A DNA stretch of 64,000 nucleotides from Escherichia coli (GCF_044324785.1 NZ_CP172127.1); one strand, 5' to 3'; shown: positions 45,987 to 63,717, counted from the stretch's first letter. Program-made: numbers and translations. Notes: generated from the sequence alone by a model not told the origin.

Positions 45987-47018
45987 ATGTCTGCATTTAC
46001 CCCGGCAAGTGAAGTCTTGCTGCGTCACAGTGATGATTTCGAACAAAGCCGTATTCTGTTTGCCGGAGACTTACAGGATGACCTGCCCGCGCGTTTAGAT
46101 ACCGCGGCCAGCCGTGCTCATACCCAGCAATTCCACCACTGGCAGGTGTTAAGCCGCCAGATGGGGGATAACGCCCGTTTTAGTCTGGTCGCCACGGCGA
46201 ATGATGTCGCAGATTGCAATACGCTGATTTACTACTGGCCGAAGAACAAACCGGAAGCCCAGTTCCAGTTGACGAATTTACTTTCTCTACTGCCGGTGGG
46301 CACGGATATTTTTGTCGTTGGCGAGAACCGCAGCGGCGTGCGCAGCGCCGAACAGATGCTGGCAGATTATGCGCCGTTGAATAAAGTCGACAGCGCCCGT
46401 CGCTGTGGCCTCTATTTTGGTCGTCTGGAAAAACAGCCGGTATTTGATGCCGATAAATTCTGGGGCGAATACAGCGTCGATGGCCTGACGGTCAAAACGC
46501 TGCCGGGCGTGTTTAGCCGCGACGGTCTGGATGTCGGTAGCCAGTTACTGCTCTCGACGTTAACTCCGCACACGAAAGGTAAAGTGCTGGATGTCGGCTG
46601 TGGCGCGGGCGTGCTTTCTGTTGCCTTTGCGCGCCATTCACCGAAAATTCGTCTCACTCTGTGCGATGTCTCTGCGCCAGCGGTAGAAGCCAGCCGCGCA
46701 ACACTTGCCGCCAACGGCGTTGAAGGTGAAGTCTTTGCCAGTAACGTCTTTTCCGAGGTGAAAGGTCGTTTTGATATGATCATCTCCAACCCGCCGTTCC
46801 ACGATGGGATGCAAACCAGCCTCGATGCGGCGCAAACGCTGATTCGCGGCGCGGTGCGTCATCTTAATAGCGGCGGCGAGCTGCGAATTGTAGCGAACGC
46901 CTTCCTGCCTTATCCGGACGTGCTGGATGAGACATTTGGCTTCCATGAAGTTATCGCGCAAACCGGGCGCTTCAAGGTGTATCGCGCCATTATGACCCGC
47001 CAGGCGAAGAAAGGTTAA
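45987..47018 (+). CDS. rsmC: 16S rRNA m2G1207 methyltransferase RsmC
   Basis: ORF track 343 aa; SAM-binding motif [12 protein letters not shown]. Confidence 0.95.
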
Positions 47019-47033
47019 GTATCTGGCACCTGT

Positions 47034-47077
47034 CGCCGCATACCGTGTCGGATGCGGCGTACACGCCTTATCTGACC
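47034..47077. repeat. REP-like palindromic element downstream of rsmC
   Basis: gccgcataccgtgtcggatgcggcgtacacgccttatctgacc read directly. Confidence 0.55.
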
Positions 47078-47148
47078 GACAAACGAATTATCCACAATTC
47101 GCTGATGGCCATTTTTCCAGCAATTACACCTCTGTCGATAATTAACTA

Positions 47149-47176
47149 TTGACGAAAAGCTGAAAACCACTAGAAT
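47149..47176 (+). promoter_or_regulatory. tRNA-Leu promoter (-35 TTGACG, 16-bp spacer, -10 TAGAAT, GC-rich discriminator)
   Basis: Hexamers read directly; AT-rich upstream stretch; 41 nt between the -10 and the mature tRNA 5' end. Confidence 0.75.
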
Positions 47177-47217
47177 GCGCCTCCGTGGTAGCAATTCTTT
47201 TTAAGAATTGATGGTAT

Positions 47218-47304
47218 GCGAAGGTGGCGGAATTGGTAGACGCGCTAGCTTCAGGTGTTAGTGTCCTTACGGACGTGGGGGTTCAAGTCCCCCCCCTCGC
47301 ACCA
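47218..47304 (+). tRNA. leuQ: tRNA-Leu (anticodon CAG), 87 nt with encoded CCA
   Basis: GCGAAGGTGGCGGAATTGGTAGACGCGCTAGCTTCAGGTGTTAGTGTCCTTACGGACGTGGGGGTTCAAGTCCCCCCCCTCGCACCA; class II tRNA with long variable arm. Confidence 0.95.
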
Positions 47305-47342
47305 ATTATCTTTACTTCCTTTCTTGTTGCTTCCCTGTTTTA

Positions 47343-47579
47343 TCATCCCTGCTTCAAATTCATTATCATCAGCATGATGCCAGCAATAAGCGCCAGGCAC
47401 GATGGCAGCAAAACGTAATGCCGCAACTGTTTGTGATACAGCATCACCGGCGTCAATACTAATCCCATCAGAATGATAATCCGCCATTGATCCGGCGATA
47501 AATCCGCATACATCAGCCCTGCAATCAGCAATCCCGGCAGCAACACTCCCCAGCCACTGCCCAGCGTACGTTGCAACAT
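47343..47579 (-). CDS. yjjZ: Small membrane protein YjjZ (78 aa)
   Basis: Internal start MLQRTLGSGWGVLLPGLLIAGLMYADLSPDQWRIIILMGL... within ORF track 47343..47690. Confidence 0.75.
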   Translation of the reverse strand: MLQRTLGSGWGVLLPGLLIAGLMYADLSPDQWRIIILMGLVLTPVMLYHKQLRHYVLLPSCLALIAGIMLMIMNLKQG

Positions 47580-47719
47580 GGTTTCATCTCTTTCATTGAT
47601 AATGATAACCAATATCATATGATAATTTTTATCATTTGCAAGCCAGAGAAATCCCTTGCTATCGGGTAAACCTATCGCTAGGATTAGCAATCATTATCAT
47701 TTAGATTACTATCACGATT

Positions 47720-48508
47720 ATGGCCTATCGTTCCGCACCGCTCTATGAAGATGTTATCTGGCGAACGCATCTCCAGCCGCAGGATGCTGGGCTTGCACAA
47801 GCCGTACGGGCGACGATCGCCGAACATCGTGAACATTTGCTGGAGTTTATCCGTCTGGATGAACCCGCACCGCTCCGTGCCATGACGCTGGCGCAATGGT
47901 CATCACCGAATACGCTAAGTTCTCTACTGGCGGTCTATTCCGATCATATCTACCGCAACCAACCCTTGATGATCCGCGAGAACAAACCGCTGATCTCACT
48001 ATGGGCACAATGGTATATCGGCCTGATGGTGCCACCATTAATGCTGGCGCTACTGACGCAGGAAAAAGCATTAGATGTGTCGCCGGAACATTTCCATGCT
48101 GAGTTTCACGAAACCGGACGCGCCGCCTGTTTCTGGGTCGATGTGTGTGAAGATAAAAACGCAACACCACATTCGCCGCAGCAGCGAATGGAAACGTTAA
48201 TCAGCCAGGCGCTGGTTCCGGTTGTGCAGGCACTAGAAGCGACCGGAGAGATCAACGGCAAACTTATCTGGAGTAATACCGGTTATTTGATCAACTGGTA
48301 TCTCACTGAGATGAAGCAACTGCTCGGCGAGGCGACGGTTGAATCGCTGCGCCATGCCCTATTTTTTGAGAAAACGCTCACGACCGGTGAAGATAATCCA
48401 CTCTGGCGTACCGTGGTGCTGCGCGACGGCCTACTGGTGCGCCGCACTTGCTGCCAGCGTTATCGCTTACCGGATGTGCAGCAATGTGGCGATTGTACGC
48501 TGAAATGA
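47720..48508 (+). CDS. fhuF: Ferric-siderophore reductase FhuF (2Fe-2S)
   Basis: ORF track 262 aa; C-terminal C-C-x10-C-x2-C motif (CCQRYRLPDVQQCGDC). Confidence 0.93.
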   Translation: MAYRSAPLYEDVIWRTHLQPQDAGLAQAVRATIAEHREHLLEFIRLDEPAPLRAMTLAQWSSPNTLSSLLAVYSDHIYRNQPLMIRENKPLISLWAQWYIGLMVPPLMLALLTQEKALDVSPEHFHAEFHETGRAACFWVDVCEDKNATPHSPQQRMETLISQALVPVVQALEATGEINGKLIWSNTGYLINWYLTEMKQLLGEATVESLRHALFFEKTLTTGEDNPLWRTVVLRDGLLVRRTCCQRYRLPDVQQCGDCTLK

Positions 48509-48544
48509 AGCACTGCCGGGGAAGTAAACCCGGCATCATGTGGA

Positions 48545-49222
48545 TTAATAGGGATGCAACACATTACTTGCTTCGCAATGCCGCATACATAACAGAATAT
48601 CTGCGGCCTCCAACAACCCTGCATCAGAACTGACGCCCAGTTTCGACATCACATTAAATTTATGTGCACGGATCGTTTTGATATTGCGTTTAAGCTGCTC
48701 GGCAATTTGTGTCATTGAGTAGCCACGCGACATAAAGCGCAATATTTCTCTCTCCGTCGGGCTTAGCGTTCGGCTTTGATTAATGTACCACTGATTGTTC
48801 AGTCGGTCGGTCGCCTGACGTACACCATTTAATGACAAAAAGAGTTCCTGATGAAAAATCTCCAGCGTTGACGCTTTACTTAATACACCGTCCAGCGGTG
48901 ATGGCGACAATGAACCGATCAGCCGAGCTTCAATATCATCATCCGCAATAACTAAACGTCGGGTACGCGGAAACTTAATCGCCAGTTCAGTCAGGCAAGA
49001 TAATCCCTCTCTGCGTTCACTTCTCATGGCAGAAAAAGAAAAAATGACCGCCGCAAACGAGATCCGCGACATGGCATCCTGAAATGACTCCTGACTGGTA
49101 TAGGTATGGAGCTTATAAGGGTTACCTGCAAACTTTCTGAATAAACTCTCAATACCGATACTGCTCATGACGCATTTTTCTATGAGTGCGACATTTCTCT
49201 TCTTAATTCGGCTGTGTTCCAT
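48545..49222 (-). CDS. bglJ: LuxR-family transcriptional activator BglJ
   Basis: ORF track 225 aa; C-terminal LuxR HTH ([25 protein letters not shown]). Confidence 0.9.
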
Positions 49223-49905
49223 TCTGCGGCATCTCCATAAACAGAAGGCAAGTTAAGTTCTCTTGCACCCTGCGCGCTATTTATCCATGCATACATTTCA
49301 GCGTTGCTGTGAATTGCCAGTCGACGCATCGCACTGTTTTTTTGGGCGCTGATAGTTTTATTACTTTTCTTAAGCAATGAAGCTATCTGGTTGATGCCCC
49401 ATCCTTTACCTAATAGCCGCAGTACCTTGCGCTCTGAAAGAGTGAGAATGACGGAGCGATAGCTAAAATCATGAGTTTCAGTCATTGCCGGAGAGGTCAG
49501 CATGGCGCTGATACGCTCTGCGTGCGTATTGCCGGAACGTACGGTCTTGACCAGATTCTCAATAGGTTCAACATCAGACAATAACGTCGCCGTAGGGCAC
49601 ATGAGCAATTCTACTGCCTGGGAATACCAGGAGCGTGACACCATGAAAACCCAGTGAATTTCCCGATATTGTGAGATTAAAGAATAATAATGTTCACAAA
49701 CAGAACGTGGATCTTCACTTTCACCGGCTAAATCAGCAATAACTAATCCGGAACGACGTAATTGTAATAAGGTAAGGTCCTCCGCAGAGGCGCTGGATAT
49801 TATTTCATATTCAGGGAAGTGAGTCCTCATGACCTCTTTTAACCCTGCTTGCATAACAGGTATTTTACTGATAACAATTCCATTTTTGCAGCATCCTGGC
49901 AACAT
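49180..49905 (-). CDS. yjjQ: LuxR-family transcriptional regulator YjjQ
   Basis: ORF track 241 aa; C-terminal LuxR HTH ([23 protein letters not shown]); overlaps bglJ by 43 nt. Confidence 0.9.
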
Positions 49906-50523
49906 ATTTCCTCCACATCCACTGTCTAAAAATCATGATGGTTTATTCAGGATATTCATTCCTTAAATGTTTCCAGCAAATTAATAGATTAAGCGAATAA
50001 ATTATCCTTAGCATTCACTTTCATATCAGCATACTCCTGCTGCACAACAACTCCACTGCATGTGTCAGAAGGTTAGCATCAAATGATAACCTGGTGAAAT
50101 AGCCTGGAGACATTTAAAATATCTACATTAAGTTGTTAGAAATACTTAATGAAAAACAGAATTCTCATTCATTTAATTTATAATTAACTGATATCCCTTC
50201 CCGCAGAATGCAAAATCACACAATCAATATTTATTCAATAAAATCTGATAGTTTTAACTTGTAAAAATTAAAAAACGCGCCCAGTTATCTTTTATCCTGA
50301 TTCGTAAAGGCTAAACAATAAATTCATTATAGTGATAATATTCATGCGATAATTTGTTTGCGGCGAGAGATAATTCGCTTTTTAACACCGAGCTTCTCCC
50401 GATAACCAGGATTAATCAGCGCAATTTTGATCTTAACCTACCGCAAAACAACCGTGCTTCATGATACAAATGGATTCTCATTATCTGAACAATACGCAGC
50501 ACGTCTATGACAAAGGGCGAGTT

Positions 50524-51294
50524 ATGCAAACTGAGCAACAGCGAGCCGTAACACGGCTTTGTATCCAGTGTGGATTATTTCTTTTGCAACATGGTGCGGA
50601 AAGCGCGTTGGTTGATGAGCTTTCCTCACGACTGGGTCGGGCGTTGGGAATGGACAGCGTCGAAAGTTCTATCTCTTCGAACGCCATAGTGCTGACAACC
50701 ATCAAAGATGGACAATGCCTGACATCGACACGTAAAAATCACGATCGCGGCATTAATATGCATGTGGTGACTGAAGTCCAGCACATTGTGATTCTGGCGG
50801 AGCATCATCTGCTGGATTACAAAGGTGTAGAGAAACGATTTAGCCAAATTCAGCCATTACGTTACCCGAGATGGCTGGTAGCCTTAATGGTCGGCCTTTC
50901 TTGCGCCTGTTTCTGTAAACTCAATAAAGGTGGCTGGGATGGTGCCGTCATCACCTTCTTTGCCAGTACGGTCGCGATGTATATCCGCCAGCTGCTGGCA
51001 CAACGTCATCTTCATCCACAGATCAACTTTTGCCTCACCGCTTTCGCCGCCACCACCATTTCCGGTTTGCTTTTGCAACTTCCCACTTTCAGCAATACAC
51101 CCACTATCGCGATGGCCGCCAGCGTTCTGCTGCTGGTGCCGGGTTTTCCGTTGATTAATGCCGTCGCCGATATGTTTAAAGGCCACATCAATACCGGACT
51201 GGCACGCTGGGCGATCGCCAGTCTGCTGACACTGGCTACCTGCGTCGGCGTGGTGATGGCACTGACGATTTGGGGGCTACGCGGATGGGTGTGA
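50524..51294 (+). CDS. yjjP: Inner membrane protein YjjP (ThrE-family-like)
   Basis: ORF track 50461..51294; start set at [27 protein letters not shown] (256 aa). Confidence 0.88.
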
Positions 51295-51758
51295 TCGAAT
51301 TTCTGTTCGCGTTGGCGCAGGATATGATCCTCGCCGCCATTCCAGCGGTCGGCTTTGCGATGGTGTTCAACGTTCCCGTTCGGGCGTTACGCTGGTGTGC
51401 GCTGCTTGGCGCGATTGGTCATGGTTCACGAATGATCTTAATGACCAGCGGGCTGAATATTGAGTGGTCAACCTTTATGGCCTCCATGCTGGTCGGCACC
51501 ATTGGTATTCAATGGTCGCGCTGGTATCTTGCGCATCCGAAAGTGTTTACCGTGGCGGCTGTTATCCCCATGTTCCCTGGCATATCGGCTTATACCGCAA
51601 TGATTTCGGCGGTAAAAATCAGCCAGTTAGGTTACAGCGAGTCATTGATGATTACCCTATTAACCAACTTTCTTACAGCTTCATCGATTGTTGGTGCATT
51701 ATCCATCGGTCTTTCCATTCCTGGATTATGGTTGTACCGCAAGCGCCCTCGCGTATAA
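51285..51758 (+). CDS. yjjB: Inner membrane protein YjjB
   Basis: ORF track 51270..51758; start set at [26 protein letters not shown] (157 aa); overlaps the yjjP end. Confidence 0.88.
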
Positions 51759-51865
51759 AATTGCCTCGCTTAAAGCACACGGATGAGAGACAGCCTCCTC
51801 TCCTCCGTGTGTTACTATAAAAGTTATCTCCCTTCTCGTTCATCGTTCCATATTTGAGAAACAGT

Positions 51866-52405
51866 ATGTCTTCCAGAGTTTTGACCCCGGACGTCGTTGG
51901 TATTGACGCCCTGGTACACGATCACCAAACCGTTCTGGCAAAAGCTGAAGGCGGTGTGGTTGCCGTATTTGCTAACAATGCCCCGGCGTTTTATGCCGTC
52001 ACGCCTGCACGCCTGGCTGAACTGCTGGCGCTGGAAGAAAAGCTGGCGCGTCCGGGAAGCGATGTCGCTCTGGACGATCAACTCTATCAGGAACCGCAAG
52101 CCGCTCCCGTTGCTGTACCCATGGGGAAATTCGCCATGTATCCGGACTGGCAACCCGATGCCGACTTTATCCGCCTGGCGGCGCTATGGGGCGTGGCGCT
52201 AAGAGAGCCGGTGACCACCGAAGAACTGGCCTCATTCATTGCCTACTGGCAGGCGGAAGGTAAAGTCTTTCACCATGTGCAGTGGCAACAAAAACTGGCG
52301 CGCAGCCTGCAAATCGGCCGTGCCAGCAACGGCGGACTGCCGAAACGAGATGTGAATACGGTCAGCGAACCTGACAGCCAAATTCCACCAGGATTCAGAG
52401 GGTAA
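51866..52405 (+). CDS. dnaT: Primosomal protein DnaT
   Basis: ORF track 51854..52405; start set at [29 protein letters not shown] (179 aa). Confidence 0.93.
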
Positions 52406-52407
52406 CG

Positions 52408-53145
52408 ATGAAAAACGTTGGCGACCTGATGCAACGCCTGCAAAAAATGATGCCTGCCCATATCAAACCTGCGTTCAAAACGGGTGAAGAACTACTGGCC
52501 TGGCAGAAAGAACAAGGGGCGATCCGCTCCGCCGCTCTCGAACGTGAAAATCGGGCGATGAAAATGCAGCGCACCTTTAACCGCTCCGGTATTCGTCCAC
52601 TGCATCAGAACTGCTCCTTTGAGAACTATCGCGTTGAGTGTGAAGGGCAAATGAATGCGTTAAGCAAAGCGCGCCAGTATGTCGAAGAGTTTGACGGCAA
52701 CATCGCCAGCTTCATCTTTTCTGGTAAGCCAGGAACCGGCAAAAACCATCTGGCGGCAGCAATCTGCAACGAGCTGCTGCTACGCGGTAAATCCGTATTG
52801 ATCATCACCGTGGCCGATATTATGTCGGCGATGAAAGATACCTTCAGGAATAGCGGTACCAGCGAAGAACAACTGCTTAACGATCTGAGCAACGTTGATC
52901 TGCTGGTGATCGATGAGATCGGCGTGCAGACCGAATCGAAATACGAAAAAGTGATCATCAACCAGATCGTCGATCGCCGCTCTTCTTCCAAACGCCCAAC
53001 CGGGATGCTGACCAACAGTAATATGGAAGAGATGACCAAGTTGCTGGGCGAACGCGTGATGGACCGTATGCGCCTGGGTAACAGTTTGTGGGTGATCTTC
53101 AACTGGGATAGCTACCGTAGCCGGGTAACGGGTAAAGAGTATTAA
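52408..53145 (+). CDS. dnaC: Helicase loader DnaC
   Basis: ORF track 245 aa; Walker A GKPGTGKNHLAAAI. Confidence 0.96.
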   Translation: MKNVGDLMQRLQKMMPAHIKPAFKTGEELLAWQKEQGAIRSAALERENRAMKMQRTFNRSGIRPLHQNCSFENYRVECEGQMNALSKARQYVEEFDGNIASFIFSGKPGTGKNHLAAAICNELLLRGKSVLIITVADIMSAMKDTFRNSGTSEEQLLNDLSNVDLLVIDEIGVQTESKYEKVIINQIVDRRSSSKRPTGMLTNSNMEEMTKLLGERVMDRMRLGNSLWVIFNWDSYRSRVTGKEY

Positions 53146-58437: not shown

Positions 58438-58607
58438 ATTAAGTACAGATTAAAAACATTGATTCTTGGTTTATATCACTATGTTGTATTAATGCAGTAT
58501 TAATCCAGGCGATTGTTCTGCCTATAAGGAAATACATAGGGAATAAACGATGCTGGAAGTATTACTCTCAGCCATCATTTAACTCCCTATTACTGGTAGC
58601 GATAAAA

Positions 58608-60260
58608 TTATCGGCTATCCATGATTAACGTTTCCAGCACATCTAATTCACTGACTATTTTTGCCAGTGTTTCATCACTGACTTCTTGCCGTGCACGCAT
58701 CTGGTAAATAGCCGCACGCCTGGCATTTAACGCTGCCAGATTAAATGTTCTTTCCAGCTTCGCGCGCTGCATATGTAAAGAATTATCATTTTCCGACATA
58801 TCATCTTCGCTACGCCGCATATAACCGATAACTCTGGCCCCTGTTTCCATAATCAACTCGTTGTCGAGGTTTTCTGTACTGGTGCGTAGCAAACGTTGCT
58901 CAGTCTTTTGCACACTGAGTATGGCCATTTTGGCCATAAACAGATCGGCAGCTTCCTCTTCTTTTTGCCGGTTATCGCTGAAAATGCCCACATTTTTCCC
59001 CAGTAGTAACGGCAGAATAATAATGCCGCAAACCAGCGAAAAGAGGATCACACCTGTGGCGAGAAATACCAGTAAGTAACGCCCGGGAAAAGATGTGCCA
59101 TCCGGCAGCAATAACGGGATAGAAAGCACCCCCGCAAGCGTGATGGCTCCGCGCACCCCCGCAAAGGTCGCCAGCAGCATATGACGCGTTTTATATCCAG
59201 CAAACAGCATCGGATGTTTGCCGGGTCGTTTACGGCTATACAGACGCATCAGCCAAAGCCAGCCCAAGCGCACAACCATTAACGCCAGGTAGATCCAAAT
59301 GACATCAAGGAGCAGCGATCCGGTGTCTACCAGTGGATCGTTTTCTGCACGGATCAGTGATTCCGTAATAATGCCCGGCAGTTGTAAGCCTAAAATCAGA
59401 AACACCATGCCGTTAAAGACATATTCAAGCATCGACCAGCTACTTTTAGCTTTAATTCTCAGGCGAATAGGCGCGTGGTGGACTACGCCAATGCGACTGG
59501 TTGTTAACCCCGCGGCGACAGCGGCAAGAATGCCAGATAAGCCAAAATGTTCCGCAACCAGATAAACAATAAACGGCAACAGAAGCATCAATACAATCTG
59601 AATGGAAGGTTCATCGTGAGCATATCGACTGATCAACAGCAGCCCTTTGCCATATAACCAGGTAACAGCGATCCCCACGGCAATACCGCCCAACGCAACG
59701 ACAAAAAACGCAATGGTTGCGCCATGAACGCTGAATTCCATCGTTCCCATCGTCACTGCAACAGCAAATTTCAACGCCACCAAGCCGGAAGCATCATTCA
59801 TCAACGCTTCGCCTTCGAGCACTTCCTGGATGTTTTTGCTGATACGCCCTTTCCCGACAATCCCCAGCAACGCCACGGCATCGGTAGGCGACAACACGGC
59901 GGCTAATGCGAAAGCAGCGATGAGCGGCACATTCGGTAAGAGTAAATGAATCACATAGCCGACACCAAAAATAGTGATTAGCACCAACACAAGCGCCAGG
60001 CTGACAATTTCCCGACTGTGCTTGATCAATTCTTTAGGTTGTATTTTTGAGCTTTCAGCAAACAACAAGGGGGGTATAAACAATAAGAGAAAAAGTTCAG
60101 GATTGAATTCCACATGCAGACCAAATATGGGCTGGGCCAGTATAGCGCCAGCGGCAATCTGGATTAAAGGAAGTGGTATCTGAACAGGAGACAGACGCGT
60201 AAGCACGCTGGTTAATGATACTACCAACGTAAGAATTAAAATTGTTAAAAGTATTTCCAT
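58608..60260 (-). CDS. CPA1-family Na+(K+)/H+ antiporter (NhaP-type) with C-terminal cytoplasmic domain
   Basis: ORF track 58608..60281; multi-TM; CPA1 signatures AVLSPTDAVALLGIV and EGEALMNDASGLVALKF; start may be 60281 or 60260. Confidence 0.85.
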   Translation of the reverse strand: MEILLTILILTLVVSLTSVLTRLSPVQIPLPLIQIAAGAILAQPIFGLHVEFNPELFLLLFIPPLLFAESSKIQPKELIKHSREIVSLALVLVLITIFGVGYVIHLLLPNVPLIAAFALAAVLSPTDAVALLGIVGKGRISKNIQEVLEGEALMNDASGLVALKFAVAVTMGTMEFSVHGATIAFFVVALGGIAVGIAVTWLYGKGLLLISRYAHDEPSIQIVLMLLLPFIVYLVAEHFGLSGILAAVAAGLTTSRIGVVHHAPIRLRIKAKSSWSMLEYVFNGMVFLILGLQLPGIITESLIRAENDPLVDTGSLLLDVIWIYLALMVVRLGWLWLMRLYSRKRPGKHPMLFAGYKTRHMLLATFAGVRGAITLAGVLSIPLLLPDGTSFPGRYLLVFLATGVILFSLVCGIIILPLLLGKNVGIFSDNRQKEEEAADLFMAKMAILSVQKTEQRLLRTSTENLDNELIMETGARVIGYMRRSEDDMSENDNSLHMQRAKLERTFNLAALNARRAAIYQMRARQEVSDETLAKIVSELDVLETLIMDSR

Positions 60261-60940
60261 ATAATAAACAGGCTTCCTCATTCATAAATAATGGATATTA
60301 TTAATTTAACTTCATAAAAAGCGCCCTGGTTAGCACTTAACGTTAATCATTAATCACAGCGTTCACTCACATGCTCAGGAGGAAACCAGTGAGATGAGTT
60401 TTCCCGTTGATAACAAATTCACCATGTGAATATTTACTACCTTTAACCGTTGTAACGAATCATCCGTTACTCTTTGATCTCCTTGCCGAACAAGTTGTTT
60501 AGTGAATGATGGCTTTCTTTTAACGTCAGCATGAATTATACGTTCAGCAAATGTATTAAATCAGCACTAAATAAATTTAATGGATACCACCATTCTGCGT
60601 CAACACTTAGTTTTTATCTGTAAAAATAGCCGCAGCCAAATTAATGCTTTTATTTTTAATAAATCATCAACCGAATAAGAGATCTTATCAGCGGTAACTA
60701 AACTCATCAGTGGGTGTTCCTTGTAACGTCATACATTACATAACTTTAAGATATACAATCAAAAAATGCATTAAAAACCGATTAAAAGCAGCAAAGTATT
60801 ACCCGGTGCACGAATTTATGACACATTTGCAGCCATTCCGCTATTCACTGACTACTTTTCAGTAATGACTGCTTTTTCATAAGGTTTCACTCCCGACAAC
60901 AATGTTGGAGTTTTATTTCCTTAGCATGGAGTAAGTAAAG

Positions 60941-61912
60941 ATGAGCAAAATAATAGCGATGCTAATTACTGTCAGTACCCTTTTTTTACCGTCAATAATC
61001 CAGGCAAAACCTATTTCGATAAAAGTTGCCTATGAAAATAACCCTGGAGAACCCCTGGATGTGGTCATGCGTTACTGGGCAGACCTATTAAATAAAAAAA
61101 GTAATGGCGAAATAACACTTGCGCTCTATCCAAGTTCCCAATTGGGCTCAAAACAGGATGTCACCGAGCAAGCCATGATGGGCATGAATGTCATAACCTT
61201 GAGTGATGTGGCCTTTCTTGCCGATTATGAACCCGATTTGGGTATTTTGTTTGGACCGTATCTGACTGACGATCCGCAAAAACTGTTCAAAATATATGAA
61301 AGCGACTGGTTTAAACAAAAAAATGAAAGTCTGAAGAAAAAGGGAATTCATGTGGTAATGAATAATTATCTCTATGGCACTCGACAGATTATTTCGAAAA
61401 AACCCATTCGCACTGTTGACGATCTCGCAGGCTTAAAAATTCGTGTTCCTAATAACGTCATGCAAATAAAAGCCATTCAGGCGATGGGGGCAACACCAAC
61501 TCCCATGCCATTAGGCGAAGTTTATCCCGCATTAACCCAGGGCGTTATTGACGGCGTAGAAAACCCAATTTCAGTGCTGCAAGGGCAAAAACTGTATGAG
61601 CAGGCAAGATATCTGACAATGGTTAACTACCTGACAAATACCTCAGTATGGATAGGTGGTGAAGCCTTCTTTAGCACCCTTTCACCAGAACAACTGGAGA
61701 TGATCCACCAGACCGGCTATGAAGCGGGTGTCTATAGCCAGAAACTCACTCTTGAACGTGATGCCGAAATGTTGAAAACCATGCAGGCAGCGGGCGTCGA
61801 AGTGATCTATCCCGATACTGGACCATTCCAGAAGAAAGCACGCGAAGTTTACTCTCAATTCCCGGAATGGACACCAGGTCTGTACGAAACCATTCAACAG
61901 CAACTGCAATAA
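60941..61912 (+). CDS. TRAP transporter substrate-binding protein (DctP family)
   Basis: ORF track 323 aa with signal peptide; GGAG RBS upstream; first of three co-oriented genes with the DctP/DctQ/DctM size pattern. Confidence 0.8.
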   Translation: MSKIIAMLITVSTLFLPSIIQAKPISIKVAYENNPGEPLDVVMRYWADLLNKKSNGEITLALYPSSQLGSKQDVTEQAMMGMNVITLSDVAFLADYEPDLGILFGPYLTDDPQKLFKIYESDWFKQKNESLKKKGIHVVMNNYLYGTRQIISKKPIRTVDDLAGLKIRVPNNVMQIKAIQAMGATPTPMPLGEVYPALTQGVIDGVENPISVLQGQKLYEQARYLTMVNYLTNTSVWIGGEAFFSTLSPEQLEMIHQTGYEAGVYSQKLTLERDAEMLKTMQAAGVEVIYPDTGPFQKKAREVYSQFPEWTPGLYETIQQQLQ

Positions 61913-61975
61913 GCATTAATGCTCAGCGTCCTGCCTCATCTCTCTTAGGCAGGACACGCACTAACAGGAGGTTTC

Positions 61976-62449
61976 ATGCGTCTTTTTGGCAAAGTGGCAG
62001 AATTTAGTGCTGCCTTTGCGCTATTCGTTCTGGTTGTGATGACAATTGGAGCGGTATTTATGCGTTATTTCATCGGCCAACCGCTTCAATGGACAGAAGA
62101 AATGTCGGGAATGCTGATGATTTGGGTGGTGATGTTAGGTGGAGTAGTGGCGGAACGTGACAGGGCGCACCTGACCATTCCCTTCCTGATGGAGATGCTT
62201 CCAGGCAAGCTCAGGCGTGTTATTGCAGTACTGGTCGCCGTTCTCTCCATCGCACTGCTGCTGTATATGGCCTGGCTGGGCTACCGACTAGCCGAAATGG
62301 CGCAGTTTAAAGTGACACAAATTCTGAAGGTTTCCTGGTTCTGGATCGATCTGGCGGTCCCTGTCGGTGCACTGGCAACGGCTATTTATACCCTCTACTG
62401 GTTAATACACGATATAAAACAATCCGATAGCGGAGACAAAATGCAATGA
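61976..62449 (+). CDS. TRAP transporter small permease (DctQ family)
   Basis: ORF track 157 aa, four predicted TM helices; overlaps the next gene by 4 nt. Confidence 0.8.
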   Translation: MRLFGKVAEFSAAFALFVLVVMTIGAVFMRYFIGQPLQWTEEMSGMLMIWVVMLGGVVAERDRAHLTIPFLMEMLPGKLRRVIAVLVAVLSIALLLYMAWLGYRLAEMAQFKVTQILKVSWFWIDLAVPVGALATAIYTLYWLIHDIKQSDSGDKMQ

Positions 62450-63717
62450 GTTGGTTATTGATTATTCCGCTAATGATCGTCTGTTTGTTTCTCAACATTC
62501 GGGTCTATCTGGCGATGTTTATTGGCATCATCGCTTACTTTTTATTCTTCTCCAGCGTACCGATTGAAATTGCCGTGCAAAGACTGATCGCGCCAACGCA
62601 AAGCCCATCATTGCTGGCAATTCCGTTTTTTATCTTGCTCGGCACACTAATGAGCTACACCGGCATTGCCGAACGCATCCTGCACATTGCCAATGTTCTG
62701 GTGGGGAAAATGCGCGGCGGACTGGGCGTGGCAAACATTCTCGTCAGCACCATGATGGGCGGCGTCAGCGCCTCTAACCTTGCTGACGCGGCGATGCTGT
62801 CGCGCATGATGGTGCCGGAGATGGAGCGTAAAGGCTACAATCGCGCGTTTGCCGCCGCCATTACCGCTGGTGGCTCGTTAGTCACCCCGATCATACCGCC
62901 GGGAATAGCCCTGATTATTTACGGTCTGGTTGCCGACGTCTCTATCGGAAAAATGTTTATCGCCGGACTGGTACCTGGTTTGCTATGCGCAGTCGTATTG
63001 ATGTTTACCGTCTACCTGGTCGCCCGCAAAACTAACGCCAAACCCTCGCGTGAAAGCTGGCCTACGGGCAAAGAGGTGGTGTTCTCGCTGGGACAGGCCT
63101 GGCCTGCGCTGTTCCTCATTTTTGCTGTGGTGGGTGGTATTCGCGCTAACATTTTCACCCCAACAGAAGCAGGCGCAGCAGCGGTGTTAATCGTGCTGGC
63201 GATTGGCTTTTTTATCTATCGTGAAATGCGGATTTCTCATGTCGTCAAAGCATTGGGCGAAACGGCACGCGCTACCGCATCGGTGATGCTGGTAATCATG
63301 GCCAGCGCCGCGTTGGGATGGATTTTCTCAATGGAACATGCTGGTGTCGCAGTGGCGAATTTTGTGACTTCGCTGACCGAAAATAAATATATGTTCCTGT
63401 TGATTATCAACATATTGCTGCTGACGCTGGGGATGTTTCTTGAAGGAAACGCCATTTTGCTGATCCTGGTACCACTATTAAAACCGGTGGTCGAACACTT
63501 TGGCATCGATCCGGTGCATTTTGGCATCATCATGATCTTCAACCTGTCGATTGGCGCATTCACGCCACCGGTAGGTACCGTGATGCTGCTGGTATGTAAC
63601 ATCACGCAAGTTTCGGTGGGAAATTTCTTTAAACAATCCCTACCCCTACTGGCGGCTCTCCTGTTAATGCTAATGCTGGTGACATATATCCCGGCGATTT
63701 CACTGTTCCTGGTTTAA
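62446..63717 (+). CDS. TRAP transporter large permease (DctM family)
   Basis: ORF track 423 aa, highly hydrophobic, about 12 TM helices. Confidence 0.85.
   Translation: MSWLLIIPLMIVCLFLNIRVYLAMFIGIIAYFLFFSSVPIEIAVQRLIAPTQSPSLLAIPFFILLGTLMSYTGIAERILHIANVLVGKMRGGLGVANILVSTMMGGVSASNLADAAMLSRMMVPEMERKGYNRAFAAAITAGGSLVTPIIPPGIALIIYGLVADVSIGKMFIAGLVPGLLCAVVLMFTVYLVARKTNAKPSRESWPTGKEVVFSLGQAWPALFLIFAVVGGIRANIFTPTEAGAAAVLIVLAIGFFIYREMRISHVVKALGETARATASVMLVIMASAALGWIFSMEHAGVAVANFVTSLTENKYMFLLIINILLLTLGMFLEGNAILLILVPLLKPVVEHFGIDPVHFGIIMIFNLSIGAFTPPVGTVMLLVCNITQVSVGNFFKQSLPLLAALLLMLMLVTYIPAISLFLV

Follow-up and report, generated by a model that had tools for sequence, protein, structure and literature searches.

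An AT-rich divergent spacer between yjjQ-bglJ and yjjP in Escherichia coli, orthologous to the H-NS-silenced, LeuO-activated region of K-12

Gene content and boundaries of the spacer

The stretch of Escherichia coli DNA analysed here (64 000 nt; GCF_044324785.1, NZ_CP172127.1), hereafter referred to as the window, carries two divergent gene pairs, i.e. yjjQ-bglJ and yjjP-yjjB, which are separated by a long AT-rich spacer (Table 1). RefSeq annotation of K-12 and of strain N3 confirms the gene identities, as does Pfam: YjjQ and BglJ each have a GerE/LuxR helix-turn-helix, and YjjP, for which the K-12 annotation gives a putative succinate exporter subunit, belongs to the ThrE family. A first-pass annotation of the window had described a spacer of about 600 bp between the divergent yjjQ-bglJ operon and yjjP; the open reading frames confirm its exact coordinates, with a length of 618 bp between yjjQ on the minus strand and yjjP on the plus strand.

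This length depends on the start codon of yjjP. Translation from an ATG at 50461 would give a protein of 277 aa and shorten the spacer to 555 bp, the length that we take to be that of an older annotation. This extended reading frame is interrupted by frame-shifting indels in other Escherichia and its ATG is not preceded by a Shine-Dalgarno sequence, while the ATG at 50524 has AAGGG ahead of it. Therefore, the latter was taken as the start of yjjP.

The 3′ end of yjjQ and the 5′ end of bglJ share exactly the 43 nt that had been stated at first pass, and the overlap measures 37-58 nt in almost all of 80 related Enterobacteriaceae loci. Homology of BglJ to the proteins of other genera begins at residues 1-9, i.e. 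ahead of the alternative Met19, which supports the annotated bglJ start. While co-transcription of the two genes as an operon is established, the term ‘co-translation’ used for it at first pass was loose wording; translational coupling of yjjQ and bglJ through an overlap that is conserved across genera is plausible on the basis of the sequence.

Several features were noted on the bglJ side of the locus. On the plus strand, fhuF runs towards bglJ on the minus strand, and only 36 bp (48509-48544) separate the two stop codons; fhuF is iron-regulated, and read-through from it would run antisense to bglJ. In the divergent yjjZ-fhuF spacer, the best Fur-box match of the window (GATAATGATAACCAATATC, 47598-47616) differs from the 19-mer consensus at two positions. 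Further away, a single tRNA-Leu(CAG) gene is present at 47218-47304 where K-12 MG1655 (leuQPV) and N3 have three tandem copies, the other two having probably been lost from the window's strain by recombination between the repeats. Between rsmC and this tRNA gene, positions 47038-47077 gave a sub-threshold Rfam match to the REP-derived naRNA4/CssrE (29.8 bits, with a gathering threshold of 59.5).

Table 1. Features of the yjjQ-bglJ/yjjP-yjjB region, in window coordinates
Feature	Position	Strand	Basis
bglJ, LuxR/GerE-type regulator, 225 aa, second gene of the operon	48545-49222	-	ORF, annotation, Pfam PF00196
Overlap of yjjQ 3′ end and bglJ 5′ end, 43 nt	49180-49222	-	ORF coordinates
yjjQ, LuxR/GerE-type regulator, 241 aa, first gene of the operon	49180-49905	-	ORF, RefSeq K-12 and N3, Pfam PF00196
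Divergent AT-rich spacer	49906-50523	none	G+C 0.337; same length as in K-12; 96.8 % identical
yjjQ Shine-Dalgarno GGAGG	49910-49914	-	At least 90 % conserved in 74 sequences
Predicted sigma-70 promoter of yjjQ-bglJ, CTGATA-17-GATAAT	50001-50029	-	Promoter scan
Marbox GCATCAAATGATAAC, MarA site	50076-50090	+	Identical 15-mer, occurring once in the window
AT-rich core, about 74 % A+T; putative H-NS nucleation/silencing region	50106-50355	none	Composition in 50-bp blocks
44-bp block inside the core; candidate LeuO or H-NS site	50107-50150	none	Conservation in Escherichia
Interval of the K-12 IS5, IS2 and IS1 insertions	50268-50413	none	Mapped via the ungapped 618-bp alignment
TGATAATATTCAT block, overlapping the promoter-like TAAACA-16-GATAAT	50333-50345	+	Conserved within Escherichia only
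TTGATC(T), candidate regulator half-site, about -47 from the putative start	50427-50433	+	Invariance in 63 sequences
TGATACAAA, extended -10-like TGnTAnAA	50462-50470	+	Conserved bases at fixed distance from TTGATC
yjjP Shine-Dalgarno-like AAGGG	50513-50517	+	(A/C)AGGG or CAGAG in most of 63 sequences
yjjP, ThrE-family membrane protein, 256 aa	50524-51294	+	ORF, annotation, Pfam PF06738 (E 1.5e-69)
yjjB, second gene of the yjjP-yjjB pair, 10-nt overlap with yjjP	51285-51758	+	ORF, K-12 and N3 annotation

Relation to K-12 and distribution in E. coli

A 3.5-kb stretch around the spacer was matched in 5424 of the 5426 complete E. coli genomes, the best match being that of strain N3 (99.4 %) and nearly all others lying within 95-99 %; the annotation underlying these matches reads fhuF, bglJ, yjjQ, yjjP and yjjB. 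Compared with K-12 MG1655, the window shares the gene content, order and orientation of the region, the 618-bp spacer and the 43-nt overlap. The two spacers align without gaps at 96.8 % identity and differ by 20 SNPs, of which 18 lie inside 50140-50385, i.e. in the AT-rich centre. None of the 20 affects a promoter, marbox or TTGATC element; the window and K-12 agree in the marbox, in the hexamers of the predicted promoters and throughout the module next to yjjP described below. At position 50140, the window has the base common to all other Escherichia, the K-12 base being the derived one. The SNPs are predicted to make no functional difference, and, judged by both position and sequence, the window spacer is the orthologue of the K-12 spacer.

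SNP patterns in the yjjP/yjjQ spacer have been used as host-informative markers (PMC11267920). At least one strain among the complete genomes carries a natural IS1-associated deletion, i.e. E. coli PS3Tanimalfeces2, in which IS1 takes the place of everything from the 5′ part of bglJ through yjjQ and the spacer to the first codons of yjjP (locus L003, 4792-5999).

Base composition and predicted curvature

The spacer had been described at first pass as strongly AT-rich with many A/T tracts, and the numbers bear this out. Its G+C content is 33.7 % compared to 51.6 % in the window (A+T 66.3 versus 48.4 %), a value reached by merely 0.37 % of the 618-bp segments of the window, with the lone comparable trough elsewhere located at approximately 60000-61300. 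A or T homopolymer tracts of at least four bases (19.4 versus 9.8 per kb), A/T runs of at least six bases (32 versus 9.3 per kb) and TpA steps (0.087 versus 0.043 per base) occur at 2 to 3.5 times their density in the window. The low-G+C trough reaches past the spacer into yjjQ, covering about 100 bp of its 5′ end, and the most AT-rich part of the spacer, as determined in 50-bp blocks, is the core at 50106-50355. Taken together with the K-12 literature, this composition suggests that H-NS would bind the core.

More specific signatures of H-NS were sought with the high-affinity motif TCGATAAATT and with a curvature wedge model, the motif and the wedge parameters being those of the literature. 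Sites resembling TCGATAAATT with at most two mismatches number four in the spacer, i.e. 6.5 per kb versus 1.3 per kb in the window, a five-fold difference. Dinucleotide-preserving shuffles of the spacer contain 2.1 ± 1.5 such sites, against which the four observed are no clear excess; likewise, promoter-like sites in the spacer are no more numerous than in composition-matched shuffles. Curvature, the prediction of which the first-pass annotation had suggested as a check, is only moderate in the wedge model: the path reaches its minimum end-to-end/contour ratio of 0.875 at 50450, at the 2.4th percentile of the window, and the AT-rich core is nearly straight. No helical phasing of A-tracts or of AA/TT steps at 10-11 bp was found in the spacer. 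What the sequence analysis supports is thus confined to a composition that would favour H-NS.

Another long and AT-rich divergent spacer (60262-60941; 680 bp, G+C 0.346) separates a Na+/H+ antiporter gene from a TRAP dicarboxylate transporter operon, and its composition makes it a candidate for silencing of this type as well. It belongs to a 5.1-kb accessory segment (58600-63700) matched in 973 of the 5426 complete E. coli genomes; in 856 of these, the match spans at least 80 % of the segment.

H-NS and LeuO control in K-12

Repression by H-NS and activation by LeuO are documented for the yjjQ-bglJ operon of K-12 (PMC5025477, PMC3950696, PMC4264507, PMC2646131), all four papers citing Stratmann et al. 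(2008, J Bacteriol 190:926), and a genomic SELEX table lists an H-NS site as well as an RpoD-holoenzyme site in the yjjP/yjjQ spacer (PMC3946193). The leuO gene is itself activated by BglJ-RcsB, while under laboratory conditions H-NS dominates and both loci are off (PMC5025477, PMC3950696, PMC4264507, PMC2646131). Even when activated by LeuO, the native operon makes too little BglJ to close the feedback loop under these conditions (PMC5025477). The statement made at first pass, namely that the region is H-NS-silenced and LeuO-activated in K-12 and hence expected rather than novel, is thus in line with the literature on a region characterised in 2008. The title of that original study, by Stratmann, Madhusudan and Schnetz, also names yjjP as regulated by H-NS and LeuO, and its abstract is said to place H-NS binding at the centre of the spacer, distal to both promoters. 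Considering this literature and the orthology to K-12, the earlier reading is supported, and we infer from the same orthology that H-NS silencing also operates in the window's strain.

Two other loci invite comparison. The bgl operon, the classic H-NS-silenced locus, is activated by LeuO, by BglJ-RcsB and by IS insertion. With the yjjP/yjjQ spacer it shares an AT-rich upstream silencer, the off state under laboratory conditions and the relief of silencing by LeuO and by IS insertions ahead of the promoter. It differs in having an extra downstream H-NS site inside bglG and in being CRP-dependent, whereas the yjjP/yjjQ spacer serves two divergent promoters and its activating IS insertions were gut-selected for yjjP and not for the LuxR-type genes. 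The leuL-leuO spacer, i.e. the partner node in the LeuO/BglJ loop, is silenced by H-NS together with StpA, regulated by LeuO and BglJ-RcsB, and, as is the yjjP-yjjQ spacer, a MarA ChIP-seq target in enterotoxigenic E. coli (ETEC). It is nevertheless another locus with another sequence; BglJ-RcsB acts there, but no BglJ-RcsB box has been described for the yjjP/yjjQ spacer.

Conservation across Enterobacteriaceae

A scan with YjjQ, using one genome per species, yielded 80 loci in the Enterobacteriaceae, and essentially all of them keep the divergent arrangement of yjjP and yjjQ-bglJ. About 52 species have a single spacer of 387-709 bp with a G+C content of 0.32-0.44 (median 0.365), the values for yjjP and yjjQ being 0.55 and 0.47, respectively. 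With 618-627 bp, the Escherichia spacers are among the longest. In about 24 species, including Klebsiella, Kluyvera, Raoultella and some Citrobacter, 1.8-2.6 kb lie between yjjP and yjjQ. The example of Klebsiella pneumoniae ATCC 13883 (locus L071, 653-2735) contains two extra genes, encoding an FAD-dependent monooxygenase (394 aa, PF01494) and an AraC-type regulator (302 aa), and still has an AT-rich stretch of about 265 bp directly upstream of yjjQ.

The sequence itself turns over rapidly. Within Escherichia, nucleotide diversity (pi) is highest in the spacer centre, at 0.2-0.3 versus 0.09 in the flanking genes, and between genera the core is not alignable. Length and composition are thus kept while the sequence is not, as a composition-reading silencer such as H-NS would predict.

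The same pattern has to be weighed against the view that the spacer is passive AT-rich intergenic DNA, shaped by mutational bias and weak promoters, and that H-NS silencing does not operate in the window's strain. An H-NS motif density and a number of promoter-like sites that shuffled sequences equal, a moderate curvature and a core that is the fastest-evolving part of the spacer are all compatible with such DNA. We consider this view highly improbable, given that experiments on the K-12 region, which is 96.8 % identical, have demonstrated both silencing and activation by LeuO, that length and AT-richness persist in about 52 species despite the sequence turnover, which points to selection on composition, and that IS insertions in the spacer are adaptive and alter expression.

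Nor does the distribution of the locus favour the view that the AT-rich DNA was left as a scar by horizontal acquisition or by a mobile element, e.g. as an island junction or the remains of an IS element. The G+C content of yjjQ-bglJ (0.42-0.47) is indeed below that of the neighbouring genes, IS elements do insert in the spacer, and the two regulators evolve much faster than YjjP outside Escherichia, where identity to the window proteins is 82-91 % for YjjP, 55-74 % for YjjQ and 39-69 % for BglJ. However, neither direct or inverted repeats nor IS remnants are found in the spacer, matches in the plasmid collection are limited to chromosome-sized records (i.e. mislabelled chromosomes), and the divergent arrangement is present throughout the Enterobacteriaceae as well as in essentially every E. 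coli genome. Since the arrangement is family-wide, any acquisition would have to be ancient and would not conflict with the regulatory reading; as an explanation of the AT-rich DNA, such a scar is very improbable.

Two deviating loci were encountered within Escherichia. The yjjP gene of Escherichia albertii NBRC 107761 (locus L008, 2183-2376) has apparently undergone a large internal deletion, with only residues 1-12 and 204-256 detectable and with the spacer and yjjQ intact. In ‘E. coli’ SCPM-O-B-8794, a member of a divergent Escherichia lineage (locus L006, 3001-3435), the reading frame of yjjQ ends prematurely after about 144 codons, with bglJ and the spacer intact.

The predicted yjjQ promoter, the marbox and conserved blocks

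Against the variable centre, the parts of the spacer conserved within Escherichia are the yjjQ leader and promoter, the marbox, the block at 50107-50150, the TGATAATATTCAT block and the last 120 bp or so before yjjP. On the yjjQ side, the hexamers CTGATA-17-GATAAT are given as the yjjQ-bglJ promoter in the RpoD genomic SELEX table (PMC3946193), and an independent promoter scan of the window returned exactly these hexamers at 50029-50001 on the minus strand. Transcription of yjjQ would accordingly be predicted to start near 49994, with a leader of about 89 nt. The promoter is conserved in all Escherichia species. In the set of 74 sequences upstream of yjjQ (the window and 73 related loci), family-wide conservation is restricted to the Shine-Dalgarno sequence, to which the GATAAT -10 element is added in Citrobacter and Salmonella.

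A MarA ChIP-seq study of ETEC H10407 gives a peak in the yjjP-yjjQ spacer with the predicted marbox gcatcaaatgataac (PMC5684230); the yjjP-yjjQ fragment bound purified MarA in vitro at 0.3 µM, the lowest concentration tested (PMC5684230). The ETEC 15-mer occurs once in the window, in identical form, with its centre about 89 bp upstream of the predicted yjjQ start and about 394 bp upstream of the predicted yjjP start. Beyond the genus Escherichia, whose species retain it with 0-2 mismatches, the site is absent.

The 44-bp block at 50107-50150 is nearly invariant in eight Escherichia sequences while its surroundings have diverged, and its single SNP relative to K-12 is the one at 50140 mentioned above. 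The promoter proposed for yjjP in the SELEX paper, i.e. ATGAAA-17-TTTAAT at 50149-50177 (PMC3946193), is unconserved outside E. coli proper and is therefore not favoured here.

The yjjP-proximal module

A different picture emerges directly upstream of yjjP, where 63 sequences (the window and 62 related loci) could be compared. All six bases of TTGATC (50427-50432) are invariant in 63 of 63 sequences (alignment A2), and C50438, T50458, G50463, A50466 and A50468 are 90-100 % conserved at fixed spacing. The bases of TGATACAAA form an extended -10-like element, which is the probable yjjP core promoter and would place the start of yjjP near 50477, with a predicted leader of about 47 nt. TTGATC lies some 30-32 bp upstream of the -10 element; a distance of about 32 bp from the -10 hexamer is too far for a -35 element, and a half-site for a regulator is more likely.

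As to which regulator this might be, 8 of the 10 positions of the FNR consensus TTGAT-N4-ATCAA agree with the region, a score that about 52 sites in the window equal and that is not significant when taken alone. The left half TTGAT of this dyad is invariant in the 63 sequences, the right half (ACCTA) is poor with only its C conserved, and the centre of the dyad lies at about -43.5 from the predicted yjjP start, compared to -41.5 for class II sites. Scans of the spacer with the Fur and CRP consensus gave weak matches, the best having five and three mismatches, respectively. The BglJ-RcsB motif (wwTTCykA) was also considered for TTGATC and rejected, being an unrelated sequence.

Conserved blocks in a spacer of this length may also raise the question of a hidden, unannotated gene, encoding a small protein or a structured or small RNA. 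A spacer of 618 bp is unusually long, and conservation in the blocks 50107-50150 and 50405-50523 equals or exceeds that of the flanking coding sequence. Against this, an Rfam search at E ≤1 over 47000-53000 found nothing in the spacer, its hits (a tRNA and the weak REP-like match) lying outside, and RNAalifold returned zero consensus pairs for the 63 yjjP-proximal leaders, which makes an RNA element there unlikely. The only open reading frames in the spacer are 21-45 aa long, and indels in other Escherichia disrupt those that were checked as well as the reading frame of the longer, 277-aa YjjP. The conserved blocks are moreover short and resemble protein-binding or promoter elements. A hidden gene as the reason for the length and the conserved blocks is thus highly unlikely.

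Insertion sequences selected in the gut

IS insertions in the yjjP/yjjQ spacer are a recurrent adaptive target of K-12 in the mouse gut (PMC4674774, PMC5094792, PMC7064181). Insertions of IS1, IS2 and IS5 are reported 111, 185 and 256 bp upstream of the yjjP ATG (PMC5094792, supplementary tables), which corresponds to approximately 50413, 50339 and 50268 of the window, and in one IS-insertion clone the expression of yjjP was increased two-fold under aerobic conditions (PMC5094792). All three gut-selected insertions (3/3) lie upstream of the module formed by TTGATC and the extended -10 element, which fits the separation of an intact yjjP promoter from the AT-rich core.

It is tempting to go further and to regard TTGATC and the TGnTAnAA element at its fixed distance as a previously undescribed, regulator-dependent promoter of yjjP-yjjB, controlled by an FNR/CRP-family factor or by the conserved GATC as a Dam-methylation-sensitive switch, with the core acting only as a distal silencer. 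Such a promoter would explain why the gut insertions all fall between the core and the module and why they co-occur with mutations in dcuB, focA and arcA. If an FNR/CRP-family factor were indeed involved, yjjP-yjjB, the putative succinate exporter genes, would be linked to anaerobic metabolism. We regard this extended reading as unlikely, although less so than the passive, mobile-DNA or hidden-gene explanations.

A probable shared control region of two divergent transcription units

We consider it highly probable that the spacer is the shared control region of yjjQ-bglJ and yjjP-yjjB, orthologous to that of K-12, silenced by H-NS and activated by LeuO. As others have shown for K-12, H-NS holds yjjQ-bglJ off under laboratory conditions and LeuO switches the operon on, whereupon BglJ, paired with RcsB, activates leuO, bgl and other loci. 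The locus thus forms one node of the LeuO/BglJ feedback loop, normally kept off by H-NS. The anatomy of the spacer suggests how this might work: both core promoters would be situated near their own genes, i.e. PyjjQ at 50001-50029 and the extended -10 of PyjjP at about 50462-50470, and the core of approximately 250 bp between them (50106-50355) may serve as the H-NS nucleation platform. H-NS filaments or bridges starting from the core would then spread to both promoters or trap RNA polymerase there. LeuO, binding in the spacer, and, in Escherichia only, MarA at the marbox (50076-50090) may counteract or modulate the silencing. An IS element that comes to lie on the core side of PyjjP, as in the repeatedly gut-selected insertions, would free yjjP from the influence of the silencer.

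The spacer is real, correctly placed and correctly interpreted, it was already known, and there is nothing unusual about the copy in the window. As such, the finding re-identifies a textbook-type H-NS/LeuO-controlled region characterised in 2008 and matters little in itself. Its biological weight lies in what the locus controls, namely YjjQ and BglJ, which feed into motility, bgl, leuO and Rcs-dependent genes. Of modest value in its own right is the comparative result, i.e. a length and composition conserved without conservation of the core sequence, together with an invariant TTGATC, from which the silencer and the yjjP promoter can be assigned positions open to testing.
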